Under the pieces are notes generated by a model. The model searched no databases. It was not told the DNA's origin and was given only the letters and a program-made list of their open reading frames with translations. Shown here piece after piece: positions 8,971-23,970 of a DNA stretch of 64,000 nt (position 1 is its first letter; every line of letters starts with the position of its first letter). The DNA is taken from IMG/VR virus record IMGVR_UViG_3300014205_000003, positions 32,001 through 96,000 of that record. One strand, written 5' to 3'. This stretch comes from a virus. Taxonomy: Duplodnaviria; Caudoviricetes. The position numbers were made by a program, and so were the translations under genes.

Positions 8971-11900
8971 ATGCCCGATGATCTCAAAACACCCATCGTT
9001 GAACCAACTCCTAACTACATCAAGTCCTACTTCGAGAAAATGGAGCTCGATCCTGAATCTGTCCAGTCAACACTCGGTCGTCCGCATACTCATGCGACAG
9101 CCGATGCGATCCTCGACGCCACCTCCAAAGTCCTCAAGCTCTCCCGCCGAGAAGTAGATCCAGACGACAGAGACTCTCTGGAGTTTCAAACTGTCCACGA
9201 TGCTTCCGACTTCCTTCCAGACAAAGTACGTATGGACCAAGGTGGAATATTGCGGAAAGCTCTGTGGAAGCTTACAAACAAGAACGGAGACTTCTCTAAG
9301 GTTCCTGCAGGACTCTTGGACAAACACAATGACAACCTGTTCAACGTCAGTGGTTTAAGCCAAGGCATTGAAGAAACGTCAAATTTCGAGATGTATGATC
9401 AGAACACTCGAGTTCATCGAATGGGTGAAGGCGCTCTTCCTAGCATTGATGCCATTCCTTTGGAAGCACGTGCAGTCTCTCCAAGTTACTTAGGTTTAAT
9501 AGATTGCGTCCGCACCCCCGAAAGTTTGAAGGTAGGTGTTGACCTCAAATTTGCGCGTAATGTGAAGAAGGGTCCTAACAACCTCGTCTATACCAAGATG
9601 CTGGATAAAGATGGGAAAGAGGTTTGGGTATCTTCTAGAGATTTACCTCGGTCGATCGTTATGTTTCCAGACTCTGGAGATAAAAACGATAAGTTCGTGC
9701 CTGCTATTGTTAGAGGACGTACTTTGGAGTATGTGGATAGGAAAACTGTAAATTACACGCTTCCTTCTGGAGATGACATGTTCTCAGAGGGCGGTAATCT
9801 TACTCCTAGTGTGTCTGGTGTAAAAGGTATGCGCTTGTTGCTTGCAGGCAAATATCCTGCGGCAGCACTGTCTATTACAGGACGTGAAGCTCCACTAGTA
9901 CAGACAATGTCTTCTGATGGAACTCCTACGTCCGATCGTATAGGAAAACACTTGGGGCCTTCCTATTCGTCTATTGAGGGTACTGTTACTAAGGTTACTC
10001 CTACAGAGATCTGGATCAAAGATGCTAAGGGTAAGATTGAAAAGAAAGATCTGTACAATGATCATCCGTACATGCGTAAATCCTATCTGCACAACACTCC
10101 TGAAGTAGAAGTCGGGCAGATGGTTAAAGCTGGAGACATTCTAGCTTCCAGCAACTTTACAGACTCTAAGGGTAATGCGGCCTTAGGTGCAAACGTACGT
10201 ATGGCTTACATGCCGCACGATGGTTTGACCTTTGAGGATTCCTCAATCATATCAGAGTCTTTGGCTAAGCGCATGACTTCGTTACATATGTACAACGAAG
10301 ATATTGACACAGATGACGCTACTCGCTTGGATAAGAAGACCTTCATGCAGATGTTCCCTGGAAAGTACTCTAAGGAACAACTGGCTAAGCTGGATGCCAA
10401 AGGCATGGTATTGCCGGGAGTAGTCCTCAATAGTGGCGATCCTATGTTCTTAGGAATTAAGGAAACTCCTCCGGGTCCTGGTAATATGGGACGTGGCTCT
10501 GTTCGACAGGTTGTCAAGAACTGGGAATACGACACTCCCGGAACTGTTGCGTACGCAGCTAAGACTAAGGGAGGCTTTACTGCCTTTGTAAAGACTCAGG
10601 AACCTTTTCAAGAGGGTGGAAAGATTGCTACTCCATATGGAAGCAAGTCAGTAGTTGCTAGAATCTATCCCGACGATCAGATGCCTAGGGACAATCAAGG
10701 ACGTCCTGTAGAGTGGATCATGAGTCCTTTTGGCGTTCAAAGCAGAACGAATCCAGCACTTATTCCTGCAGGAGCTTTAGGTAAGATTGCTGCCAAGACA
10801 GGTATTCCTTACAACCTTAGAGGCTTCAATCCCGGCGAGGTTAAGAAATTTGCAGACGAAGAGCTTGCTAAACATAACATGACCGATAAAGAAGACGTGT
10901 ACGATCCTGTGCGCAAAGTAACAATTCCAGGCATCTATGTTGGAAACGTTTACGCCTACAAGATGCAGCAAACTGCTGAGAATAAAGGACATGCACGTTC
11001 TGTAGGTACGTATAGTGCTGAGGATGTGCCCCTTAAGGGTGGTTCTAGCGGAAGTAAGCATGTGGGCGACATGGAGTGGTTTGGTTTACTTTCTCACAAT
11101 GCAATTGCGAATATCTATGATATGAAGCAAGTTAAAGGTCGTCGCAATGATGACTACTGGCGTCAGGTTAAGCTTGGACAGACTCCTAGTGTTCCCGGAA
11201 CTCCTGTAGTCTATTCCAAGTTCAAAGACTTGCTCAAAGCTGCTGGTGTAAATCTGTCGGAAGGTAAGGACACCACGTCTATCTTTGGTATGACTAACGC
11301 ACAAGCGGAGAAGTTGACAGGTAATCGAGAACTTGACTCTGCTTCTACCTTCAACGCGAATACCTTCAAGCCAATTCCTGGAGGTCTCTTCGATTCTGAT
11401 AAGACAGGTTCGTTGGGGGATGGTAGAGGCTGGAGCTACTACAGTCTTCCAGAACCTTTGCCCAATCCTGTAATGGAAGAGCCTATTCGAGCTTTGCTTG
11501 GAGTTACTAAGAAAGACTTCGACAAAGTGATCTCTGGAGAACTTCCTCTCAACGGTAAGTATGGTGGACAGGCTATTACAGAATACCTGAAGCGTGTCAA
11601 TCTGGATGATGTGATGAACACAGCTTCAGAGACCATTCGCAGTGGCAGTAAGTCTAAGCGAGATGCCGCTGTTAAGGTTTATGGCTACGCCAGTGCCATG
11701 AAGAAGCAGGGTGTACGCCCTGAAGAGTTCATGATGACTCGTGTACCTGTCCTGCCTCCTGCTTGGCGTCCTATTACTGCTAGTGGAGCTCGTACGATGG
11801 TTGCTGATCAGAACTATACGTATCGAGCATTGTTCGACAGTATTCAGGACTACAAGGATTCCATGAGTCTTCCTGAGGATCTTCGACAGACAGCTCGACA

Positions 11901-12663
11901 GAACATGTACAACAGCTACAGAAGTCTCGTAGGCACTACTGATCCTACACAGGAGAAGCTGGTACAGAAGAACGTTGGCGGTTTGCTGGACAGTCTGCTT
12001 GGCAAATCCTCGCCAAAACTGGGATTCTTTCAAAGGCGTGTAATTGGTTCTAACATTGACATGGGTGGTTTAGGGGTTGTTACCTTGAACTCCTCTCTCA
12101 AATTGAACGAAATAGGTTTACCAGAAGCGACTGTCTGGGACTTGTACAGTCCTTTCATTGTTCGTAAGCTTGTTCAGCAGGGTATGCCAGCTATGCAGGC
12201 AGCTGAAGCAATCAAGAGTAAGACAGAACAAGCAGGTAAAGCTCTACAGGGTATTATGAAAGAGCGACCTGTACTGATGAATCGTGCGCCTACCAACCAC
12301 AAGTACAGCATTATGGCTGTGTGGCCTAGAATGACTAAGGGACATTCTGTACAGGTTAATCCTACCCTTATGGGTCCCTACACAATGGACCTGGACGGCG
12401 ACGTTGCAAGTTATTCTGTTCCAGTGAGTAATAACGCTGTCAAGGAAGCAATTGCGCGTATGCTTCCTGAGAAGAATCTGCTGTCTGTTTCAAATGACAA
12501 GCCGATGTATGTTCCGAGTCAGGAGTTTGCTATGGGTGGCTGGACGATGTCCAAGGAGCCTAACAGGGACAAGCCTGTACGTTTCAACACTTGGCAGGAT
12601 GCTGTGAAGGCTTACAAGACTGGGCAGATTAAGGTAGATACTCCTGTAATTGTAGGACGTTGA
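8971..12663 (+). CDS. rpoB-rpoC: RNA polymerase fusion: beta (middle and C-terminus) joined to beta' N-terminal part carrying the catalytic DxDGD
   Basis: beta motifs RTPES, AYMPHDGLTFEDS, GGKIATPYGSK, SPFGVQSRTN, HARSVG, VGDME; then beta' motifs TFKPIPGGLF, VPVLPPAWRP, PVLMNRAPT, YTMDLDGD, PSQEFAMG. Confidence 0.95.
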   Translation: MPDDLKTPIVEPTPNYIKSYFEKMELDPESVQSTLGRPHTHATADAILDATSKVLKLSRREVDPDDRDSLEFQTVHDASDFLPDKVRMDQGGILRKALWKLTNKNGDFSKVPAGLLDKHNDNLFNVSGLSQGIEETSNFEMYDQNTRVHRMGEGALPSIDAIPLEARAVSPSYLGLIDCVRTPESLKVGVDLKFARNVKKGPNNLVYTKMLDKDGKEVWVSSRDLPRSIVMFPDSGDKNDKFVPAIVRGRTLEYVDRKTVNYTLPSGDDMFSEGGNLTPSVSGVKGMRLLLAGKYPAAALSITGREAPLVQTMSSDGTPTSDRIGKHLGPSYSSIEGTVTKVTPTEIWIKDAKGKIEKKDLYNDHPYMRKSYLHNTPEVEVGQMVKAGDILASSNFTDSKGNAALGANVRMAYMPHDGLTFEDSSIISESLAKRMTSLHMYNEDIDTDDATRLDKKTFMQMFPGKYSKEQLAKLDAKGMVLPGVVLNSGDPMFLGIKETPPGPGNMGRGSVRQVVKNWEYDTPGTVAYAAKTKGGFTAFVKTQEPFQEGGKIATPYGSKSVVARIYPDDQMPRDNQGRPVEWIMSPFGVQSRTNPALIPAGALGKIAAKTGIPYNLRGFNPGEVKKFADEELAKHNMTDKEDVYDPVRKVTIPGIYVGNVYAYKMQQTAENKGHARSVGTYSAEDVPLKGGSSGSKHVGDMEWFGLLSHNAIANIYDMKQVKGRRNDDYWRQVKLGQTPSVPGTPVVYSKFKDLLKAAGVNLSEGKDTTSIFGMTNAQAEKLTGNRELDSASTFNANTFKPIPGGLFDSDKTGSLGDGRGWSYYSLPEPLPNPVMEEPIRALLGVTKKDFDKVISGELPLNGKYGGQAITEYLKRVNLDDVMNTASETIRSGSKSKRDAAVKVYGYASAMKKQGVRPEEFMMTRVPVLPPAWRPITASGARTMVADQNYTYRALFDSIQDYKDSMSLPEDLRQTARQNMYNSYRSLVGTTDPTQEKLVQKNVGGLLDSLLGKSSPKLGFFQRRVIGSNIDMGGLGVVTLNSSLKLNEIGLPEATVWDLYSPFIVRKLVQQGMPAMQAAEAIKSKTEQAGKALQGIMKERPVLMNRAPTNHKYSIMAVWPRMTKGHSVQVNPTLMGPYTMDLDGDVASYSVPVSNNAVKEAIARMLPEKNLLSVSNDKPMYVPSQEFAMGGWTMSKEPNRDKPVRFNTWQDAVKAYKTGQIKVDTPVIVGR

Positions 12664-12684
12664 TAATCTCTTATGAGGTTGTCG

Positions 12685-12789
12685 ATGACTTCATTTGATA
12701 TTCCTAGATCTGTTCAGCATGATACGTATTCCTGTGGAGCTCATGCTGTAAGAAGTCTGTTGTGGTACTTCAAGCGTCCTGTTCATTAG
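12685..12789 (+). pseudogene. C39-like peptidase, N-terminal fragment interrupted by the TnpB element
   Basis: Hand translation MTSFDIPRSVQHDTYSCGAHAVRSLLWYFKRPVH*, with the Q-x5-CG catalytic motif. Confidence 0.65.
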
Positions 12790-12821
12790 TTGTCGAAATA
12801 GTTAATAAGCTGTAAGAAGCA

Positions 12822-12850
12822 TTGACAACTTTGACTTGGTGGTCTATATT
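12822..12850 (+). promoter_or_regulatory. Sigma70-type promoter of tnpB (probably leaderless transcript)
   Basis: TTGACA (12822-27), 17 nt, TATATT (12845-50); ATG at 12857. Confidence 0.75.
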
Positions 12851-12856
12851 AAGATT

Positions 12857-13900
12857 ATGATCAGAACCGTAAATATAGACCTAAATCATCTGACGCAACA
12901 TAAGCGGTCTAGCATTGCTGCGTTACTTACTGCATATAGAAGTGCTGTAAACTTCTACTGCAAAAGCCTATGGAACACTCCAGGGAAACTAGATGCAGTT
13001 ACAGAGAAACGTCTTGTAAACTCTCGTCTGACTGCCCGATATCGTTGCACTGCTCTCAAGACAGCTCTCGCAATTGTTATTACAACCCGCAGAGCTCTGA
13101 AGGTAACTAAGAAGTACGGATCAATTCCAGTTCTTACAGGTATGGTTTCTCTGGATCAGAAGTTCGTTACAGTTGAAAAAGGTAAGCAAAGCTTCGACTA
13201 CGTACTCAAACTCTCCTCGCTGTCTTCTGGAAACCGGATCACAATTCCTTTCAACTCTCACAAGAGACTTCAGTATTGGCTATCGAAGCCAGGAGCGGTC
13301 CTGAAACAAGCTTGTCAGATCTCTGAAGACAGGATGAAACTCTATGTAGAGTTTCCAGACGAAGCTCCTCGCACAACAGGACGTGTCCTAGGTGTAGACG
13401 TCGGAATAAACAAACTGCTGACTACTTCGGACAATGTCTTCTTAGGAACAACTTGGAAAGCTCTGTCTCTGAAGATCAGACGCTGCAAAGTTGGAAGTGC
13501 TGGAAGACAACGAGCATACAGAGAACGTGATCAGTTTATTAATCGTACTGTCAATCTTCTTCCTTGGTCAGAACTTCGAGCAATCGGAATTGAAGACCTC
13601 AAAGGTATGAAGACAGGTAAAAGTAAGAATCGAGGAAAAGCATTTCGTAAAGCACTGGCACCATGGCTGTACCGTCGACTGCTCAACCGCATAGAGGTTA
13701 AAGCAGAGGAGAACCGTGTTCGTCCTCTGCGTGTACCTGCGGCCAATAGTTCACGGGAATGTCCACGTTGTGGAATGGTGTCGAAGCTGAATCGCACAGG
13801 AGAGAACTTTGTTTGTATTCGTTGCGGCCACGCTGCGGATGCCGACTACGTCGGAGCAAGCAATGTTCTCGCTCGTACTATGCAGATCCTAGGGAGCTAG
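12857..13900 (+). CDS. tnpB: TnpB/Cas12f-like RNA-guided endonuclease (copy 1)
   Basis: RuvC residues in GVDVG, IEDL and DADY; CxxC...CxxC Zn finger; 3' hairpin ctagggagctagagtcccctag. Confidence 0.9.
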   Translation: MIRTVNIDLNHLTQHKRSSIAALLTAYRSAVNFYCKSLWNTPGKLDAVTEKRLVNSRLTARYRCTALKTALAIVITTRRALKVTKKYGSIPVLTGMVSLDQKFVTVEKGKQSFDYVLKLSSLSSGNRITIPFNSHKRLQYWLSKPGAVLKQACQISEDRMKLYVEFPDEAPRTTGRVLGVDVGINKLLTTSDNVFLGTTWKALSLKIRRCKVGSAGRQRAYRERDQFINRTVNLLPWSELRAIGIEDLKGMKTGKSKNRGKAFRKALAPWLYRRLLNRIEVKAEENRVRPLRVPAANSSRECPRCGMVSKLNRTGENFVCIRCGHAADADYVGASNVLARTMQILGS

Positions 13901-13949
13901 AGTCCCCTAGTGCCAAAAGCTGGAATTGTTAGCGCAAGTTAACTATTAC

Positions 13950-14227
13950 GGTAACTCTCTCCCAAGCCCTCTGAATGTCTAGACTACTCCTAAGAACAAT
14001 TCCTGTATGCTTCAAACCACTTGCTGTAAGTGCTCTAAGCAGACACACCCACCTTATCCTTCTTCCGTCGTGCAACATAGCTTCTTCATAGCCCTCCAAT
14101 ATGGTAATAGGACGCTAAATTAGTCTATGTTGTTGATTCAAGCAATGGCAGGGATACAGAGTTCAGTCACTTAGAGTGGTTTCGGTACGAATACGATCAC
14201 ATACGAGTGTTTGCGATAAAGAATTAA
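13950..14227. pseudogene. Remainder of the C39 peptidase: middle part inverted (- strand), C-terminus on + strand
   Basis: Minus strand 14104->13950 reads PYWRAMKKLCCTTEEG then (frameshift) LLRALTASGLKH; plus strand reads DAKLVYVVDSSNG...IKN*. Confidence 0.55.
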
Positions 14228-14229
14228 CT

Positions 14230-15156
14230 ATGACCGAAGCAGACCTTCAAAAACTTGCGGCAATCTCTTGGGGAAAACTTCTGCACGAAGGTTCAGAAGG
14301 GCAGAATGCTTCTAGAGATGCTATCGCAAAACTCTTGCAGATCATGCGCAAGCATACGCCTACAACTTTTCTTCCTCACAAATATCGCTTGCCTAATCTG
14401 TTTAACAAAGCTCCTGACTTCTTCTTTCCTGGTTGGTCAGAGCGAAAAGTTCTAGAGCATCCTGTAACGCAGAAAGTCCTTCAAGCGACTGTAGGTAAAG
14501 TTCCAGGTATGTCCTTGCCTATCTCTAATCTGCCAAACAGGCTTGAGCAGGTTTCTGGACTACTGTCAGATGCCGCTAAGCAGTATACGGCTCCTCTCAG
14601 TAGAGGTGTTAACAAAGCTGTATCTCTTCTTCCTCGTAAGACTCAAAAGATTACACCTCTCAAGGTGGACGATTTGAAGATTACCGACGATGTATCGAAG
14701 CTGGACAAGACAGGTTCAGACGCTTGCAGTCTGTTGCTTCAGAAGCTCGCAGAGAAAAACGATGAGTGGACTGCAGGCGATGTAGCTCTAACAGGCGCGG
14801 CTGGAAGTCTAGCCGCTCCTATCTATGCAGGGTCTGAATATGCTACAATGAAGCACTTGGCCAAGAAGCAACCTGTTGCTCAGGGTTTGATGAATCCTAA
14901 CAAGTGGGCACATGTAATTGCTAAGTTGATCAAAGCCCAGAAAGATGTTGAAGTTTCTGACAAGACACGTGCAACGTATATAAAACAGTGGAACAATGCG
15001 GCTAAGAGTACTTGGAGAAATGGTAGAGACGTTATGCTTACTGCAGAAGGTGTAAATCCTAAGCTGGTTAAAGGCGGTAAGTACAGTTTGATGATTCTTC
15101 CTGCAGTACTTACTGCTTTAGCCATTCAGAGTAAGCATAATGACAAGTTAAGTTAA
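14230..15156 (+). CDS. Hypothetical putative virion protein (KxA motifs, hydrophobic segments)
   Basis: ATG at 14230: MTEADLQKLAA; C-terminal hydrophobic helix. Confidence 0.75.
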   Translation: MTEADLQKLAAISWGKLLHEGSEGQNASRDAIAKLLQIMRKHTPTTFLPHKYRLPNLFNKAPDFFFPGWSERKVLEHPVTQKVLQATVGKVPGMSLPISNLPNRLEQVSGLLSDAAKQYTAPLSRGVNKAVSLLPRKTQKITPLKVDDLKITDDVSKLDKTGSDACSLLLQKLAEKNDEWTAGDVALTGAAGSLAAPIYAGSEYATMKHLAKKQPVAQGLMNPNKWAHVIAKLIKAQKDVEVSDKTRATYIKQWNNAAKSTWRNGRDVMLTAEGVNPKLVKGGKYSLMILPAVLTALAIQSKHNDKLS

Positions 15157-15179
15157 TAAGTAGAACAAAGGAAACGCAC

Positions 15180-15857
15180 ATGTCAGTTCACACGCAACGT
15201 CTTATCCAGCTTCTGCAAAAAGAAGGCTTCGTTCCTCCGACTCCTCCCCCGCAGGGTATGCCTCCTGGCGCTCCTCCTGCTGATCCGAATGCTGGAATGC
15301 CTCCCCAAGGTGATCCTGCTGCCGCTGGTGCACCTGTTGATCCCGCGACAGGTATGCCAATGGACCCTGCAATGGCTCAGCAGATGCCAGCAGATCCTGC
15401 CGCAATGCCTCCTCCGGGTGATCCTGCAGCTATGGGTGGTGCACCTGTTGATCCTGCTACAGGTATGCCGATGGACCCTAACGCTATGCCTGCTGATCCC
15501 AATGCTCAGCCGCCAGTTCCTACTCTTGCAGAGATTCCTGTGGATCAGTTCATGGCGATGATGCAGGACATGATGACTGCTGGTAAAGCTCCTGAGGGTC
15601 CTGCGGATGACGGCAAGAAAGAATCTGTTGCCGATCTGAGCAAGCGCATGGAGAATCTTGAAGGTATGCTGAGTCAGCTCCTGCAGGCTTCGGGTATGAT
15701 GCCTCCTGAGCAGGGCGCGGCTCCTATGGCTCCTCCGATGCCTCCTCCTGACGCTACGCAGAAGACTGCCGCTCTTGCTGAGTTGAAGAACAAGAACGCT
15801 GTCAAGAACGCAACTCTGGCAGGCAAGCTTCGTAAACTCGGTGGCGTGGTTCGCTAA
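15180..15857 (+). CDS. Pro/Met/Ala-rich low-complexity protein
   Basis: GAPVDPATGMPMDP repeated twice; AAAGGA RBS; QKTAA. Confidence 0.8.
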   Translation: MSVHTQRLIQLLQKEGFVPPTPPPQGMPPGAPPADPNAGMPPQGDPAAAGAPVDPATGMPMDPAMAQQMPADPAAMPPPGDPAAMGGAPVDPATGMPMDPNAMPADPNAQPPVPTLAEIPVDQFMAMMQDMMTAGKAPEGPADDGKKESVADLSKRMENLEGMLSQLLQASGMMPPEQGAAPMAPPMPPPDATQKTAALAELKNKNAVKNATLAGKLRKLGGVVR

Positions 15858-15879
15858 AAAGTGCACATCTGTGCGTTTT
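15857..15879. repeat. Dispersed palindrome copy
   Basis: Identical to the 5586 copy, including the downstream ctggag. Confidence 0.85.
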
Positions 15880-15892
15880 CTGGAGATTGTAG

Positions 15893-16570
15893 ATGCCTGA
15901 TCAAGATCATCAGAGTCGTGTTGAGCGCATGAAAAACTCTTTGAAGAGTCTGGCTACTCAAGCTGGAAACACTCTCAAAGAACATCCAGAATACGTTACA
16001 GCGCCTGCTGGAGCTCTTGCCGGGGGTTACTTAGCTAACAAGGCTACAGGTAATCCTTTGATGACTGCTGGAAGTGCCGCTGGTGGTGCAGGACTGGCTT
16101 ATGCTCTAACAGACGTCTTGAAACATCAGACTCCTGGAGTACTTGCTAAAGACTTGAAGCCTGAGAGTACTTCTAATGCTGTCGAGGACTTTGCAGAGTC
16201 TCCAATAATGACGACTGTTGGAACAGCGGCATCTGCTCTACCTTCTGCGGCTCTTACAGGAGCTCAACTTACAGGTCTGTCTGCTATTCCTGGATATGGT
16301 CTCTATCGGCTTAAAGAACTTCTCAGACGTAAGGGTGTTTTTGACAAAGTAGTAGATGAAACAGGTAAAGCAAAGAAACCCACAGGTGTTTTAGGTGGGA
16401 TTAAAGGCTTCGTTACAGGCAATGAACACATTTGGAACCCTATTCAGGCTAGTGGGATAAACCCTATTGCTCAGAAAGCTCACAGAGTTGTTAAAGCTTC
16501 TGCAATTCCTGAAGGCGTTAAGAAGGTCTTGCGTGCGGTCATAGGTTCTGGTATCATTAAGGCTAAATAA
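15893..16570 (+). CDS. Glycine-zipper-containing hypothetical protein
   Basis: APAGALAGGYLA and AGSAAGGAGLAYAL; GGAG RBS. Confidence 0.75.
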   Translation: MPDQDHQSRVERMKNSLKSLATQAGNTLKEHPEYVTAPAGALAGGYLANKATGNPLMTAGSAAGGAGLAYALTDVLKHQTPGVLAKDLKPESTSNAVEDFAESPIMTTVGTAASALPSAALTGAQLTGLSAIPGYGLYRLKELLRRKGVFDKVVDETGKAKKPTGVLGGIKGFVTGNEHIWNPIQASGINPIAQKAHRVVKASAIPEGVKKVLRAVIGSGIIKAK

Positions 16571-16572
16571 GC

Positions 16573-18405
16573 ATGCCTGCTCAAACAGTAGGTCAGTACC
16601 TAATTCAGAATATCCTTCCAGCAGACGTCTACGACGGCTCTCCGCTGGACAAAAAGGGTATTGCTAAAGTCTTCTCCCAGTTGGCTGAAAAGTATCCAGA
16701 CAAGTACGTAGATATTCTGGATGACTACAACCAAGCTGCTGGAGACGCTGTAGCACGTTATGGTGGCGTTGCTTCTATTGGTCTCTCAGACTTAGACATT
16801 CCAGAACCTGTTAAGATTCATCGTGATGCTCTCCGTCTGAAAGTCAAAGCTATTCAGCAGAGTCCTACGCTTACAGGTAAACAGAAGAATGACGCTGTAG
16901 TCAAGTTGATGCTCTCAGAAGCAGACAACATTCGCAAGATGACTACAGAAGAGTCCATGAAAAATGGCTCACACTTCGGTCTTTCAGCTTCCAAAGGCTT
17001 CAGAGGAAATCCGTTGCAGACTACGCAGATGATTTATGGAGATCTTCTCGTAGCCGACCATAAAGATCGGCCAATCCCTGTTGCAGGTCTGCATGGTTAT
17101 GGCGAAGGTGTAACCCCTGCTGAGTACTTCGCAGGCTCGTATGGTGCTCGTAAAGGACAGGTCTCAGTACAGATTGCTACTGCTAAGTCTGGATTCTTAG
17201 GTAAAGAAATATCCTACGCAGCCCAACGTCAAGTAATTACCGGAGACGACTGCGGAGCTAAGAATGTAGGCATAACAGTCAATGGAGATAATCCTGAGAT
17301 CATAGGAAGTGTTCTAGCCAAGACTACAAAAGGTATCCCCGCAGGAACAGTTATTACCAAGAACAATCTTCCAGACCTTGAAGGTACTAAAGTTCGTATC
17401 CGTTCTCTCAGTACTTGTCAGATGCCTAACGGAGTTTGTAAGATGTGCGCAGGCAAGAGAGAACAGGGAAAGTTCCCCGACACAGGGTCTTACGTTGGAA
17501 TCACGTCTGCCAGAAGTTTGTCAGAACCCTTTACGCAATCGGCACTTAGTTACAAGCATACTGGAGGAGTTGCAAAGGGTAAAATTGATCGTGGTCTTCA
17601 AGGCTTTGCAGAGGTTGAGCAGTTCTTCAATGCTCCTGAGAACTTCAAAGGTGTTGCTCTGCAGTCTACCAAGGATGGGATTGTTCAGAACATCATCAAA
17701 GCTCCTCAAGGGGGCTCGTACGTATTCATTGACGGTCAGAAGCACTACGCTGATCCTGACATGACATTGACAGTTAAGAAAGGTGATTCTGTAGAAGCTG
17801 GAGATGTTCTTTCCGATGGAACTCCTCATCCAGGCCTTGTAGCTCACTATAAGGGATTGGGAGCTGGACGCGCTTATTTCATTGATAAGCTTGGCCAGAT
17901 CTTAGAGAAGAATGGTATTCCTGGGCACATGAGACACGTCGATTCTATGGCTAAAGCCTTCTACGACAGAGTACGTATAACTAATCCAGAAGGCTTCATG
18001 GGATACAACCCTGACGACGTTGTTCCCTATACAGAGATCCAAAAGGATTATAGCCCACGGAAAGGTACTATCTCTGTTGCTCCTAAACAAGCTGTCAATC
18101 AATACTTAGAACGTCCTGTTCTGCACTACACCATTGGAACACGTGTTACTCCCAATGTGATCAAAGAGATGAACGAAGAAGGTGTTCCTGCAATTGAAGT
18201 CCATAAAGACCTTCCAGACTTCGAACCTGAAGTCTCAAGGATTATGGATATCCAAGCATCTGATCCAGATTGGCAGACACAGCTTGCGGGCTTCAATCTA
18301 AGGAAGAGTTTGCTGAAGTCTGTTACACACGGCTCCACAAGTACTACAGCTGGTACTTCCTATGTTCCCAAGTTAGTCAATAGTACGGTTCTGCAAAATG
18401 CTTAA
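16573..18405 (+). CDS. rpoC: RNA polymerase beta' C-terminal piece (RpoC2-like)
   Basis: Bridge helix EYFAGSYGARKG..TAKSGFL, DDCG, RSLSTC..VCKMCAG Zn site, trigger loop SLSEPFTQSALSYKHTGG. Confidence 0.95.
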   Translation: MPAQTVGQYLIQNILPADVYDGSPLDKKGIAKVFSQLAEKYPDKYVDILDDYNQAAGDAVARYGGVASIGLSDLDIPEPVKIHRDALRLKVKAIQQSPTLTGKQKNDAVVKLMLSEADNIRKMTTEESMKNGSHFGLSASKGFRGNPLQTTQMIYGDLLVADHKDRPIPVAGLHGYGEGVTPAEYFAGSYGARKGQVSVQIATAKSGFLGKEISYAAQRQVITGDDCGAKNVGITVNGDNPEIIGSVLAKTTKGIPAGTVITKNNLPDLEGTKVRIRSLSTCQMPNGVCKMCAGKREQGKFPDTGSYVGITSARSLSEPFTQSALSYKHTGGVAKGKIDRGLQGFAEVEQFFNAPENFKGVALQSTKDGIVQNIIKAPQGGSYVFIDGQKHYADPDMTLTVKKGDSVEAGDVLSDGTPHPGLVAHYKGLGAGRAYFIDKLGQILEKNGIPGHMRHVDSMAKAFYDRVRITNPEGFMGYNPDDVVPYTEIQKDYSPRKGTISVAPKQAVNQYLERPVLHYTIGTRVTPNVIKEMNEEGVPAIEVHKDLPDFEPEVSRIMDIQASDPDWQTQLAGFNLRKSLLKSVTHGSTSTTAGTSYVPKLVNSTVLQNA

Positions 18406-19460
18406 CCACTTTTCACGGAAGGGGGACTATAAGCTCCCCTCTGTCGAATATTAATGGCCGCATTGAAGTCTGCGTCCATCGTCATTCCACACGCGGTACA
18501 ACAGAACGACTCTCCCTTACGGGAAAGTTTGTCTACCGCTCCGCACAAGCTGCATGTCTGCGAAGTATAGGCAGGAGGTACTTTCGTATACTTAATGCCT
18601 AATTCTTCGCTGACCATCTGAAGCCGACTCAAAACTTTTGAGTAGCTCCAGCGTTGCAGCTTGTTCATGAACTGTTTGCGAATCTTACCTTTAGACCCCT
18701 TCTTCACATCCTTCAAATCTTCTACTACAAGCTCTCGAACGTTCTGCAAGTCGAGAAGATTAACAGACTGATTGATCTTCTGATCACGTTCTGTAAGAGC
18801 TCGCTTGAAAGCTTTAGATCCTTGCTTCTTCCTAGCAATTTTCTTATACACATCTTCCATACCTACGTCGTAGATTTGCTGATCTGACGAAGCAAGAAGC
18901 TTCTTGTACCCGCAATCAAGACCTAAGGAAGATCCTATAGAAGAGCTAGGAGTAGTCTTCTCGAAGAAGACATCGAGGAACCACTTTCCGTTTACGTTTC
19001 TTAAACAGGAGCCTTTCAGTAGTTTCCAGCCATTCTGACTGAACTTGAGAAAGTGTTTATGTTTACGTGAAGGGATCTTAAGGATGAGCTTGTTCCCAAG
19101 ACAGTATATTTTTATCCAGAAGTCGAAGGAGTTAGTTTCGGCGTAAAAGGTGCAGATATTTTCACTTAAATCAAACGTCTTCTGTTTGATCACCGGCTTG
19201 GAAGCTTTCTTGCCTTTGTTCTTTCGCGTCCTTGTTCTGTTAAGCACGCCAAAAGCCTGAATAAAGAGACAGTGACAAATTCTATGAGAGAGCCATGTTT
19301 GAACAGGTTGTAGCTTGTCAAATTTTCTTGCTGACGGATATTGCCAAAAGTGATCTACGTAGACGTTGAGAACACGTAGAGCTTCATCACTGAACGTATT
19401 AAGCTTCTGGAGCTTTCCAGCATTAGCAAAATTCAATGACATTTGAACTCGACGAATCAC
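18402..19460 (-). CDS. tnpB: TnpB/Cas12f-like endonuclease (copy 2)
   Basis: GLDCG, VEDL, DADFNAA; CSLC/CTAC Zn finger. Confidence 0.9.
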   Translation of the reverse strand: MIRRVQMSLNFANAGKLQKLNTFSDEALRVLNVYVDHFWQYPSARKFDKLQPVQTWLSHRICHCLFIQAFGVLNRTRTRKNKGKKASKPVIKQKTFDLSENICTFYAETNSFDFWIKIYCLGNKLILKIPSRKHKHFLKFSQNGWKLLKGSCLRNVNGKWFLDVFFEKTTPSSSIGSSLGLDCGYKKLLASSDQQIYDVGMEDVYKKIARKKQGSKAFKRALTERDQKINQSVNLLDLQNVRELVVEDLKDVKKGSKGKIRKQFMNKLQRWSYSKVLSRLQMVSEELGIKYTKVPPAYTSQTCSLCGAVDKLSRKGESFCCTACGMTMDADFNAAINIRQRGAYSPPSVKSG

Positions 19461-22024: not shown

Positions 22025-23095
22025 ATGATTCGTAGAGTGCAAATGTCTTTAGAGTCGTCCAATAGAAGCAAACTACAGAAACTGGATACTGTGGAGGTAG
22101 AGGCTTTACGTGTTTTAAACCTTTCGATTGATTACTTATGGCAATATCCGTCTACAAGAAAATTTGATAAACCCCCCGCATTTCAGACGTGGCTCTCTTA
22201 CCGTTTTTGTCAATGTCTTTTTATTCAAGCCTTTAATGTTCTTAAAAAACTGCGAGCACGAAAAAATAAGGCTAAAAAAGTATCAAAACCAATCATCAAG
22301 AATAAAACGTTTGATGTGACTAAAAACATCTGTACGTTTTACAGAGCAGAAAACTCGTTTGATTTTTGGATAAAAGTTTACTGTCTGGGAAATAAAATCA
22401 ATCTCAATATCCCATCAAGAAAACATAAGCAGTTTCTTAAGTATAGTCAGAGTGGCTGGAAACTCTTAAACAGTTCCAGTCTGCGTAAAATAAATGGTAA
22501 ATGGTTCCTAGATGTCTTCTTTGAGAAAGCCCCACCTGCACCCGCTACAGGGACTTCCATAGGTCTTGATTGTGGGTATAAGAAACTCCTAGCGTCTTCA
22601 GATCAGAAAACATACGATGTAGGTATGGAGGTCGTTTATAAAAAGATAGTCAGAAAGAAGCAAGGGTCTAAGGCTTTTAAGAGAGCTCTTATAGAACGTA
22701 ATCAGAAGATCAACCAATCTGTTAAGCTACTAGACTTGAAGAACATTCAAGAACTCGTAGTGGAAGATCTCAAAGACGTTAAGAAGAGTTCTAAAGGAAA
22801 GATCCGTAAACAGTTTATGAACAAGCTGCAACGCTGGAGCTATCCAAAAGTTTTGGACAAACTTCAGATGGTCAGCGAGGAAGTTGGAGTCAAACTCCTT
22901 AAGGTGAGTCCAGCTTACACCTCGCAGACATGCAGCTTGTGCGGAGCGGTAGACAAACTGTCCCGTAAGGGAGAGTCATTCTGTTGTACCGCGTGTGGAA
23001 TGAAGATGGACGCAGACTTTAATGCGGCCAAAAACATTCTGATGAGGGGAGTTTATAGTCCCCCTTCCGTGACAAACCAATTAGAGATTATCTAA
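22025..23095 (+). CDS. tnpB: TnpB/Cas12f-like endonuclease (copy 3, close paralog of copy 2)
   Basis: GLDCG, VEDL, DADFNAA; C-terminal half nearly identical to 18402..19460. Confidence 0.9.
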   Translation: MIRRVQMSLESSNRSKLQKLDTVEVEALRVLNLSIDYLWQYPSTRKFDKPPAFQTWLSYRFCQCLFIQAFNVLKKLRARKNKAKKVSKPIIKNKTFDVTKNICTFYRAENSFDFWIKVYCLGNKINLNIPSRKHKQFLKYSQSGWKLLNSSSLRKINGKWFLDVFFEKAPPAPATGTSIGLDCGYKKLLASSDQKTYDVGMEVVYKKIVRKKQGSKAFKRALIERNQKINQSVKLLDLKNIQELVVEDLKDVKKSSKGKIRKQFMNKLQRWSYPKVLDKLQMVSEEVGVKLLKVSPAYTSQTCSLCGAVDKLSRKGESFCCTACGMKMDADFNAAKNILMRGVYSPPSVTNQLEII

Positions 23096-23970
23096 TGCGT
23101 AACTATTTACCTTCAAACAGCTCTGATGACTTTCACGAGCTCGTCTCAGCTCCTCTCAATCAGCGTCCACCAGCTTGGAGGCTGATTGTCGCTATGGACT
23201 TCCTTGCAGATCTCTCTAAGAATCTGCATCCTCTCTCCGTCGACGAGTATCTCATGCAAGCTGCTAGATACTACAGAGAAACCAAACTCTGCTCTCTAGA
23301 TCCCTCAAGGAGATTCAAAGCTGTTCCAGAAATCAAATGGGCCTTCAAGACTTATGGTCAATCTGGAGCAATGGGAATCCGCTGGACTACAGAAGCCCTA
23401 ATGATTGGCGGAATGGACGACGACAACATTGCTAAACTTACAGGAACCTCTGAAGATATCGTAAAGGCCTACAGGAAGATCTTCTTCGATGTCGATGGTT
23501 TCTTAAGCTCTAAAGATCTGGTCTATGCTTGTGTAATCCCTCAGAGCTTTGGCAACGCTAACTCGTATAACATTTGGGACTTCACCTGGAAGACTATTGC
23601 TCTTGAGTGTGGTGCAGAAGAGTTCTTAAAGATTCGTAGAGCAGACGTAAACATCTCTAAGGATCAAGTAAAGTTACTCAAGCATCAGCAGATGGTCAAA
23701 TCTCTTATATCATCTGGACACTTGCTTTCGGATAACAGATTAGCTTTTACTCAGGAAGCTCAAGGACTTATCGGAGTTGCGCAGAACTACTGGAAGCTCT
23801 CTCAAGCAGACACTCAGGAAATTCCTAAGCACGACGCAGCAGATGCGTTCTTCAATCGCGTAGTTCCGTACATTCAGGTAACTCTGCAGAATGCTGAACT
23901 CTTGACAGAAGCTAATTCCAATGGCAGATATCGAGAGATGGTTCCTGTACAACAACTTCTCAATGCTTGA
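23095..23970 (+). CDS. Hypothetical protein (possible HTH)
   Basis: ORF track; DDNIAKLTGTSEDIVKAY is HTH-like. Confidence 0.7.
   Translation: MRNYLPSNSSDDFHELVSAPLNQRPPAWRLIVAMDFLADLSKNLHPLSVDEYLMQAARYYRETKLCSLDPSRRFKAVPEIKWAFKTYGQSGAMGIRWTTEALMIGGMDDDNIAKLTGTSEDIVKAYRKIFFDVDGFLSSKDLVYACVIPQSFGNANSYNIWDFTWKTIALECGAEEFLKIRRADVNISKDQVKLLKHQQMVKSLISSGHLLSDNRLAFTQEAQGLIGVAQNYWKLSQADTQEIPKHDAADAFFNRVVPYIQVTLQNAELLTEANSNGRYREMVPVQQLLNA

Follow-up and report, generated by a model that had tools for sequence, protein, structure and literature searches.

The stretch of viral DNA analysed here, called the window, is 64,000 nucleotides long and comprises bases 32001–96000 of a virus record of 188,069 bp with direct terminal repeats (IMGVR_UViG_3300014205_000003). 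Within it, a transposase-less element carrying the gene of the RNA-guided nuclease TnpB appears to lie inside a small C39-like peptidase gene, the middle of which would have been reversed next to the element and kept as a fixed scar, while the guide of the element would be the flank that was native to its right end. To this reading as a whole we assign a probability of about one half, and its parts are not equally firm: that the 152 bp directly downstream of the element are the middle of the gene in reverse orientation is probable, and an insertion accompanied by a reversed gene piece is plausible. The arrangement, in positions of the window, is as follows.

12685–12784, + strand: head, the 5′ fragment of the C39-like open reading frame (ORF), about 31–33 codons, with Gln11 and Cys17; the boundary between gene and element is uncertain within 12778–12786
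12779–13958, + strand: TnpB element, of apparent IS607 lineage and with no transposase gene; right end exact, left end uncertain within 12777–12786
12857–13900, + strand: tnpB, 347 amino acids (aa); PF07282 at 55.6 bits, PHROG 506 transposase at 5.5e-23
13959–14110, − strand: putative middle piece of the gene, 152 bp, about 50 codons (...ITILEGYEE...QRAWE); sole open frame, reversed skew, clean joint frame
14111–14227, + strand: tail, the 3′ fragment, 38 codons and a stop, with its end 2 nt ahead of the next gene's ATG (14230)

A tblastn search of the complete phage genome with the local TnpB as query gives six diverged copies of tnpB (30–44% identity to the one considered here, copy A). The TnpB of copy A scores 55.6 bits against PF07282, the Cas12f1-like TNB domain, whose cut-off is 26.3 bits, and it keeps the RuvC residues D181, E246 and D330 together with the two CxxC pairs (four Cys) that are invariant across the alignment of the six copies; its catalytic residues are intact, and nuclease activity is predicted. 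Relatives of this TnpB were collected by an alignment-based scan of viral contigs, and in two unrelated contigs (L010 and L011) they form part of IS607-type elements that are 93% alike (L010:552–2245 and L011:671–2245), with a serine recombinase upstream of TnpB (Resolvase, 64 bits). Because these two carry the serine recombinase, the lineage of copy A is taken to be IS607-type. Copy A itself would have lost its transposase; no TnpA serine recombinase is found between its left end and tnpB, and the profiles of resolvases (PF00239), tyrosine recombinases (PF00589) and Y1 transposases (PF01797) have no match anywhere in the phage genome.

The right end of the element, from which the guide would be read, is placed at 13958 (...GGTAACTCT), and not at 13949, where an initial annotation of this DNA had put it. 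The features on which this placement depends are the following.

13883–13958, + strand: 3′ part of the predicted omega-RNA scaffold (covariance model, covarying pseudoknot, fold)
13899–13903, + strand: loop AGAGT of scaffold hairpin 1, which lies over the tnpB stop codon
13928–13943, + strand: GNRA hairpin of the scaffold (fold)
13943–13949: the 7-mer ctattac, in the scaffold linker between the GNRA hairpin and the pseudoknot strand
13954–13958, + strand: pseudoknot strand ACTCT, which pairs with the loop AGAGT
13959–13978, + strand: predicted guide ctcccaagccctctgaatgt, directly 3′ of the conserved scaffold end and in antisense to the final codons of the middle piece

Because three lines of evidence agree, the scaffold is concluded to end at 13958 and the guide to start at 13959: (i) the relatives, among which L008 (45% identical) and L010/L011 (37%) have the same loop AGAGT and a terminus ...AACTCT, L010 and L011 being homologous from ACAAATAAT onwards, 93% identical up to the final T of AACTCT and unrelated beyond it, while copies C–F terminate in ...GTAACTAT after a hairpin with ATAGT in its loop; (ii) the pseudoknot, in which changes in the loop are matched by changes in the 3′ pentamer, with three compensatory forms (ATAGT/ACTAT, AGAGT/ACTCT and ATGGT/ACCAT), and which, in a set of nine sequences from which copy A was left out (copies B–F with L008, L010, L011 and L013), has all its pairs formed (100%) and two of the five altered on both sides, a pairing and covariation score reached by none of 500 shuffles, with slid controls falling to about 50% paired; (iii) and finally, a covariance model built from those nine sequences, which gives a full-model match in copy A at 13883–13958 (E = 6.8e-5), with its 3′ end aligned to CGGTAACTCT. 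On the same three lines, a right end at 13946 (GTTAACTAT), which had been suggested by a spacing like that of copies C and D, was rejected. A search of copy A against Rfam returned no family, RAGATH-18 included.

The end at 13949 thus falls inside the scaffold, as does the 7-mer ctattac that had marked it, and of the 20 bases that the initial annotation gave as the new guide (ggtaactctctcccaagccc), nine belong to the conserved scaffold, the pseudoknot strand ACTCT among them. With a length taken from known TnpB systems, the guide predicted from 13959 is unique in the genome, every other site having at least 3 mismatches in 16 nt. For a phage TnpB lineage, a pseudoknot that covaries in three forms thus gives the right end, and with it the predicted guide start, to the exact base; when a right end is judged by eye, the error can be about 10 nt, and this alters every guide prediction.

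The gene is found in three pieces. The head ORF, tnpB and the tail ORF stand where the initial annotation had located them, and its idea of a reversed piece between element and tail holds to the extent that an antisense coding piece is plausible there; the limits it gave (13950–14103) were wrong and are corrected to 13959–14110. The minus-strand frame quoted for the piece, PYWRAMKKLCCTTEEG (PYWRAMKK...), runs into a stop after 16 codons, and the excision and inversion described with it leave the gene broken. The head ORF spans 12673/12685–12789 on the plus strand, contains the Gln-x5-Cys motif QHDTYSCGAH, and meets its stop just past ...cctgttc. On the minus strand of the middle piece, the frame reading ...ITILEGYEEAML...QRAWE is the only one open across the whole stretch. 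When 12785–13958 is excised and 13959–14110 is inverted, the three pieces join into an uninterrupted frame of 122 codons, and the equivalent route with excision from 12779 gives 120 codons. The composition also points to a reversed piece: the plus strand of the middle has a GC skew of −0.39 (z about −4) and a purine content below that of all 283 windows taken from neighbouring plus-strand genes, and the skew of its minus strand (+0.39) resembles that of the plus strand of the tail (+0.26). The possibility that the piece is a helix-turn-helix (HTH) ORF like those beside the sister copies was tried and rejected (−1.6 bits, no better than shuffles).

As to the identity of the gene, it resembles a minimal cysteine peptidase of the C39 type (papain fold), an accessory gene of the phage. 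The head matches Pfam Peptidase_C39 at E = 0.23 and 11.7 bits and does not reach the cut-off of 22. Profiles were therefore considered that were our own, built from 28 C39 and 29 C39_2 domains of bacterial genomes; against those of C39 the head scores 13 bits, and 300 whole-sequence shuffles reach at most 4.2 bits. For the joined protein, the score is 15.8 bits with the C39 profile, 7.4 bits with that of C39_2 and 17.3 bits with the combined one. When the middle piece is shuffled, the mean scores fall to 13.0 (p = 0.08), 2.9 (p = 0.013) and 11.1 bits (p = 0.012), in that order; p is about 0.03–0.04 when the tail is shuffled instead, and ≤ 0.001 for the head. The C39_2 alignment is a single stretch that crosses both joints with no gap at either, profile positions 4–93 lying on residues 5–93. 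Q11 and C17 align with the Gln and Cys of the profile (the oxyanion Gln lying some 6 residues ahead of the catalytic Cys). The profile alignments end at residues 93–99, and no tool aligns the catalytic His and Asp/Asn; H104 and N122 (or D113) are put forward as putative catalytic residues by reading of the sequence alone.

The protein shares with the C39 domains, both those of bacteriocin ATP-binding cassette (ABC) exporters (PF03412) and the stand-alone C39_2 (PF13529), the Gln-x5-Cys motif and, putatively, the order of a helical middle followed by a β-strand tail; unlike them, it stays far under the Pfam thresholds, has only about 120 aa, and is without relatives. In other words, the claim of a TnpB inside a C39 peptidase receives moderate support as a C39-like ORF in three pieces, with the Pfam thresholds missed, and the collinearity of the re-inverted gene with C39, which had been proposed as a check, is found with the corrected boundaries, weakly (p about 0.01–0.08 on shuffling the middle).

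For the origin of the reversal, the repeats around the element have to be considered.

12773–12780: left arm AGCGTCCT of a perfect inverted repeat of 8 bp, with the element and the inverted flank between its arms
14109–14116: right arm AGGACGCT of the same repeat
14104–14110: the 7-mer gtaatag, whose partner ctattac (13943–13949) lies in the scaffold linker

The two 7-mers are present exactly as first described. As boundaries of the inversion they do not serve, the left one being part of the scaffold and such repeats being frequent in the neighbourhood (156 inverted pairs of at least 7 nt in the 1.7-kb region). The arms of the 8-bp repeat, in turn, stand at both outer joints and in the same codon phase.

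From one and the same intact gene, the present sequence can be reached by three routes (a slash marks the joint). In route (a), insertion would have been on the reverse strand, at AGCGTC/CTCCCAAG, followed by a flip of the element together with the middle block between the 8-mers. In route (b), the middle would have flipped first, with the element landing afterwards on the plus strand at the same site. In route (c), the element would have landed at AGCGTC/CTATTACC and the flank alone would have flipped later, with one break exactly at 13958/13959. Under routes (a) and (b) the right end still adjoins its native flank, and therefore the guide would never have changed; the 6–8 bases to the left of the element would likewise have stayed as they were. 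The 8-bp repeat favours these two routes without proving them. We infer that the reversed middle would be a one-off, fixed rearrangement, most likely via the repeat AGCGTCCT/AGGACGCT, and that the guide of the omega-RNA, read from 13959 on, would direct the nuclease to home on, or to be retained against, alleles without the element. The 8-mer was also considered as an inverted target-site duplication, and rejected: five bases are left unexplained and the sister copies show no duplications.

The present joints read ACTCT/CTCCCAAG and GGTAATAG/GACGCT. A flip of the flank alone is predicted to give ACTCT/CTATTACC and CTTGGGAG/GACGCT, and a flip of the block AGCGTCCT/ATTACC and CTTGGGAG/AGAGTTACC; an empty site would read AGCGTC/CTATTACC and CTTGGGAG/GACGCT, with no element.

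The initial annotation had supposed that the inversion changed the guide. This is true only of route (c), a flip of the flank alone after insertion, with the break exactly at the end of the element and no repeat to mediate it beyond 2 bp, and with no enzyme that would cut at that end, and this route is judged the less likely. With corrected coordinates, the proposal becomes an insertion on the plus strand between ...AGCGTC (or ...CCTGTTC) and CTATTACC..., followed by a 152-bp flip of the flank that would have re-aimed the guide once, from ctattaccatattgg... to ctcccaagccctctg... It restores the gene just as cleanly; in the restored gene the hexamer AGCGTC precedes both candidate protospacers, on opposite strands, which would make both targets valid if the hexamer holds the target-adjacent motif (TAM); and the restored flank would begin with CTATTAC, which is also found 9 nt inside the right end. 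We nevertheless consider this re-aiming unlikely, in that it requires a break at precisely 13958/13959 with a mere 2-bp repeat (CT/AG) as mediator, has to take the 8-bp repeat at the outer joints for a coincidence, and has no transposase or recombinase to cut at the end of the element. TnpB, for its part, cleaves some 15–21 nt into its target and not at the element boundary, which also counts against it. A broader form of the idea starts from the intact gene as reconstructed, where the 152-bp middle is bracketed by two inward-facing copies of AGCGTC/CT: if AGCGTC carries the TAM, a local inversion next to the right end, whether one-off or recurrent, would swap the guide between two valid protospacers of a single allele, and this we hold to be quite improbable. 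An inversion that re-aims a guide would, if true, give RNA-guided transposon nucleases a new means of retargeting without transposition; the evidence does not favour it.

The most elaborate alternative, also raised at first, is that of a reversible switch in which the flank, or the element with its flank, flips between short inverted repeats and offers two alternative guides. For this there speak only the 7-bp and 8-bp inverted repeats and the symmetry of AGCGTC at the ends of the segment. It is unlikely because the phage encodes no recombinase, be it an invertase, a resolvase or a tyrosine recombinase; the repeats, at 7–8 bp, are far shorter than known crossover sites, a flip at the left 7-mer would tear the pseudoknot strand off the scaffold, and a single orientation is seen, the readable contig from the European Nucleotide Archive (ENA) being identical to the window there. 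The switch is the least credible of the explanations considered.

Against the reading of an inserted element with a reversed gene middle and a native guide, several points have to be set. The in-frame restoration is no real test of it, as both the left end and the outer breakpoint could be placed at will, and the codon-usage scores are poor for all three pieces. The support from profiles is modest and comes from profiles that we built ourselves; PF03412 and PF13529 find nothing in the six-frame translation of the genome at E ≤ 10, and the head joined directly to the tail scores nearly as much as the full reconstruction (14.6 vs 15.8 bits, and 6.7 vs 7.4 bits). No homologue of the middle piece was found in 1.84 billion representative proteins, a word search of 5.8 billion proteins, PDB, PHROGs or NCBIfam, nor in viral contigs, metagenome contigs or GenBank phages at the DNA or protein level. 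As for the route, about 22 pairs of 8-bp inverted repeats are expected by chance in 1.7 kb, this pair was noticed after the joints had been inspected, and a repeat of 8 bp offers very little length to recombination. The left end is placed within 12777–12786, where a candidate TAM lies, and the evidence on orientation consists of assembled contigs.

Some of these points are what would be expected if the 152 bp were foreign to the peptidase gene, namely a flank carried from an earlier site, the remnant of another gene on the reverse strand, or decayed sequence, with head and tail as the remains of a short ORF. The absence of a homologue from all the collections searched and the weak coding score of the piece agree with this, as does the fact that head and tail are in frame (72 aa) with nearly the score of the whole; moreover, the look-alikes of the middle piece in a protein atlas are only Clp_N-type helical repeats and not C39. 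On the other hand, 72 aa would be too short for a papain fold with a Gln/Cys head of this kind, two independent profiles each gain score collinearly from the middle (p = 0.013 and 0.08; combined 0.012), one alignment passes through both joints gap-free, and the minus-strand skew of the piece is like the plus-strand skew of the tail (+0.39 and +0.26). A foreign origin of the 152 bp is possible, and doubtful. The local inversion could also be an artefact of assembly, the genome being derived from a metagenome; the segment has no flanking inverted repeat as long as a k-mer, and the ENA contig, of 188,015 vs 188,069 bp, is identical across the region, though perhaps from the same data, and an artefact appears very improbable.

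Returning to the reading of an insertion with a reversed gene middle, the left end of the element is less sharply defined than the right. The motif TCCT(T/G)(A/T)T (12777–12783 in copy A) occurs at the left end, or just outside it, in copies A, B, C and D, whose proteins are only about 30–44% identical, and it could be either the left terminus or a short TAM ending in ...TC. By this shared motif, the sequence cctgttc is suggested to belong to the element, which is compatible with each of the routes (a)–(c). The stretch 12788–12818 matches 13926–13956 in inverted orientation over 31 nt at 71% (score 13; the best of 200 shuffles reaches 12); such a match, similar to terminal inverted repeats, is seen only in copy A, the other five copies showing nothing similar, and the left end of copy A may derive from an inverted copy of its right end. 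A core dinucleotide shared by both flanks, in the manner of IS607, was tried and set aside: it fits L010 and copy D and fails for L011 and copy C, the outer flanks of L010 having GC on both sides and those of L011 not.

In its TnpB and RNA features, copy A belongs with the OMEGA elements of the IS607 lineage (PMC8612924; PMC13565253). Like them, it has the RuvC triad and the zinc finger, and a scaffold that overlaps the 3′ end of tnpB and stops at the right end, with the guide taken from the flank; unlike them, it lacks tnpA, and four of its sister copies keep only a 55-aa HTH_17 ORF. According to a review (PMC13565253), IS607 elements end in GG, have no terminal inverted repeats, and use a G-rich TAM (AGGAG/GAGGG for most IS607 TnpBs); compared with these features, copy A ends in ...CT, its left flank ...AGCGTC(CTGTTC) is not G-rich, and its ends show the 31-nt match at 71%.

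In two accounts of TnpB homing and retention (PMC10690162; PMC13565253), the guide matches the flank of the right end, and alleles free of the element are cleaved, with the copy that has it serving as template for their repair. The same mode of working may be expected of copy A by analogy with the TnpBs described there; it differs from them in residing in a phage of virulent type with six transposase-less copies. Here, the homology arms around the element would no longer be collinear with those of an intact allele, and simple gene conversion would not be expected to copy the arrangement. Among phages, segments reversed between inverted repeats are likewise found in the invertible G segment of Mu, the C segment of P1 and the 30-kb isomers of a cyanophage. 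Those systems rely either on a recombinase of their own or on inverted repeats hundreds of bp long, and their two isomers are present side by side (bioRxiv 10.64898/2026.02.14.705889), in contrast to the locus of copy A, with repeats of 7–8 bp, no encoded recombinase and one orientation seen. The locus would be an example of a transposase-less TnpB element tied to a small rearrangement in an accessory phage gene. No intact allele or empty-site sequence was found in any of the collections searched (viral contigs, metagenome contigs, GenBank phages and protein sets).

The remaining features concern the expression of copy A, its sister copies and its neighbours.

12822–12850, + strand: predicted sigma-70-like promoter, TTGACA-17-TATATT, with 11 of 12 consensus matches
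18380–19460, − strand: tnpB copy
22025–23106, + strand: tnpB copy
on the genome pieces L002, L006 and L007: further tnpB copies

The −10 box of the promoter ends 7 nt ahead of the tnpB ATG, and the mRNA of tnpB may be leaderless. Directly upstream of tnpB in copies B, C, D and F, and absent from A and E, there is an ORF of 55 aa whose stop (TGA) overlaps the GTG start of tnpB; it matches HTH_17 at 28.7 bits, is of the MerR type, and looks like the DNA-binding head of the IS607 TnpA minus its recombinase domain.

Copy A is flanked by the gene of a fused β/β′ subunit of RNA polymerase, which ends at 12663, and by a gene of 308 aa that starts at 14230. The polymerase subunit (8971–12663, 1230 aa) has hundreds of metagenomic relatives (P0004–P0122), many of them longer and with intein or LAGLIDADG domains; among the relatives examined for synteny, each has a different downstream gene and none a peptidase-like ORF. 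The ENA assembly contig mentioned above (188,015 bp; ERZ27247358, k141_162507) is base-identical over window positions 10857–18156 and may derive from the same data, and a second contig (20–50 kb) carries the same TnpB and 308-aa protein.

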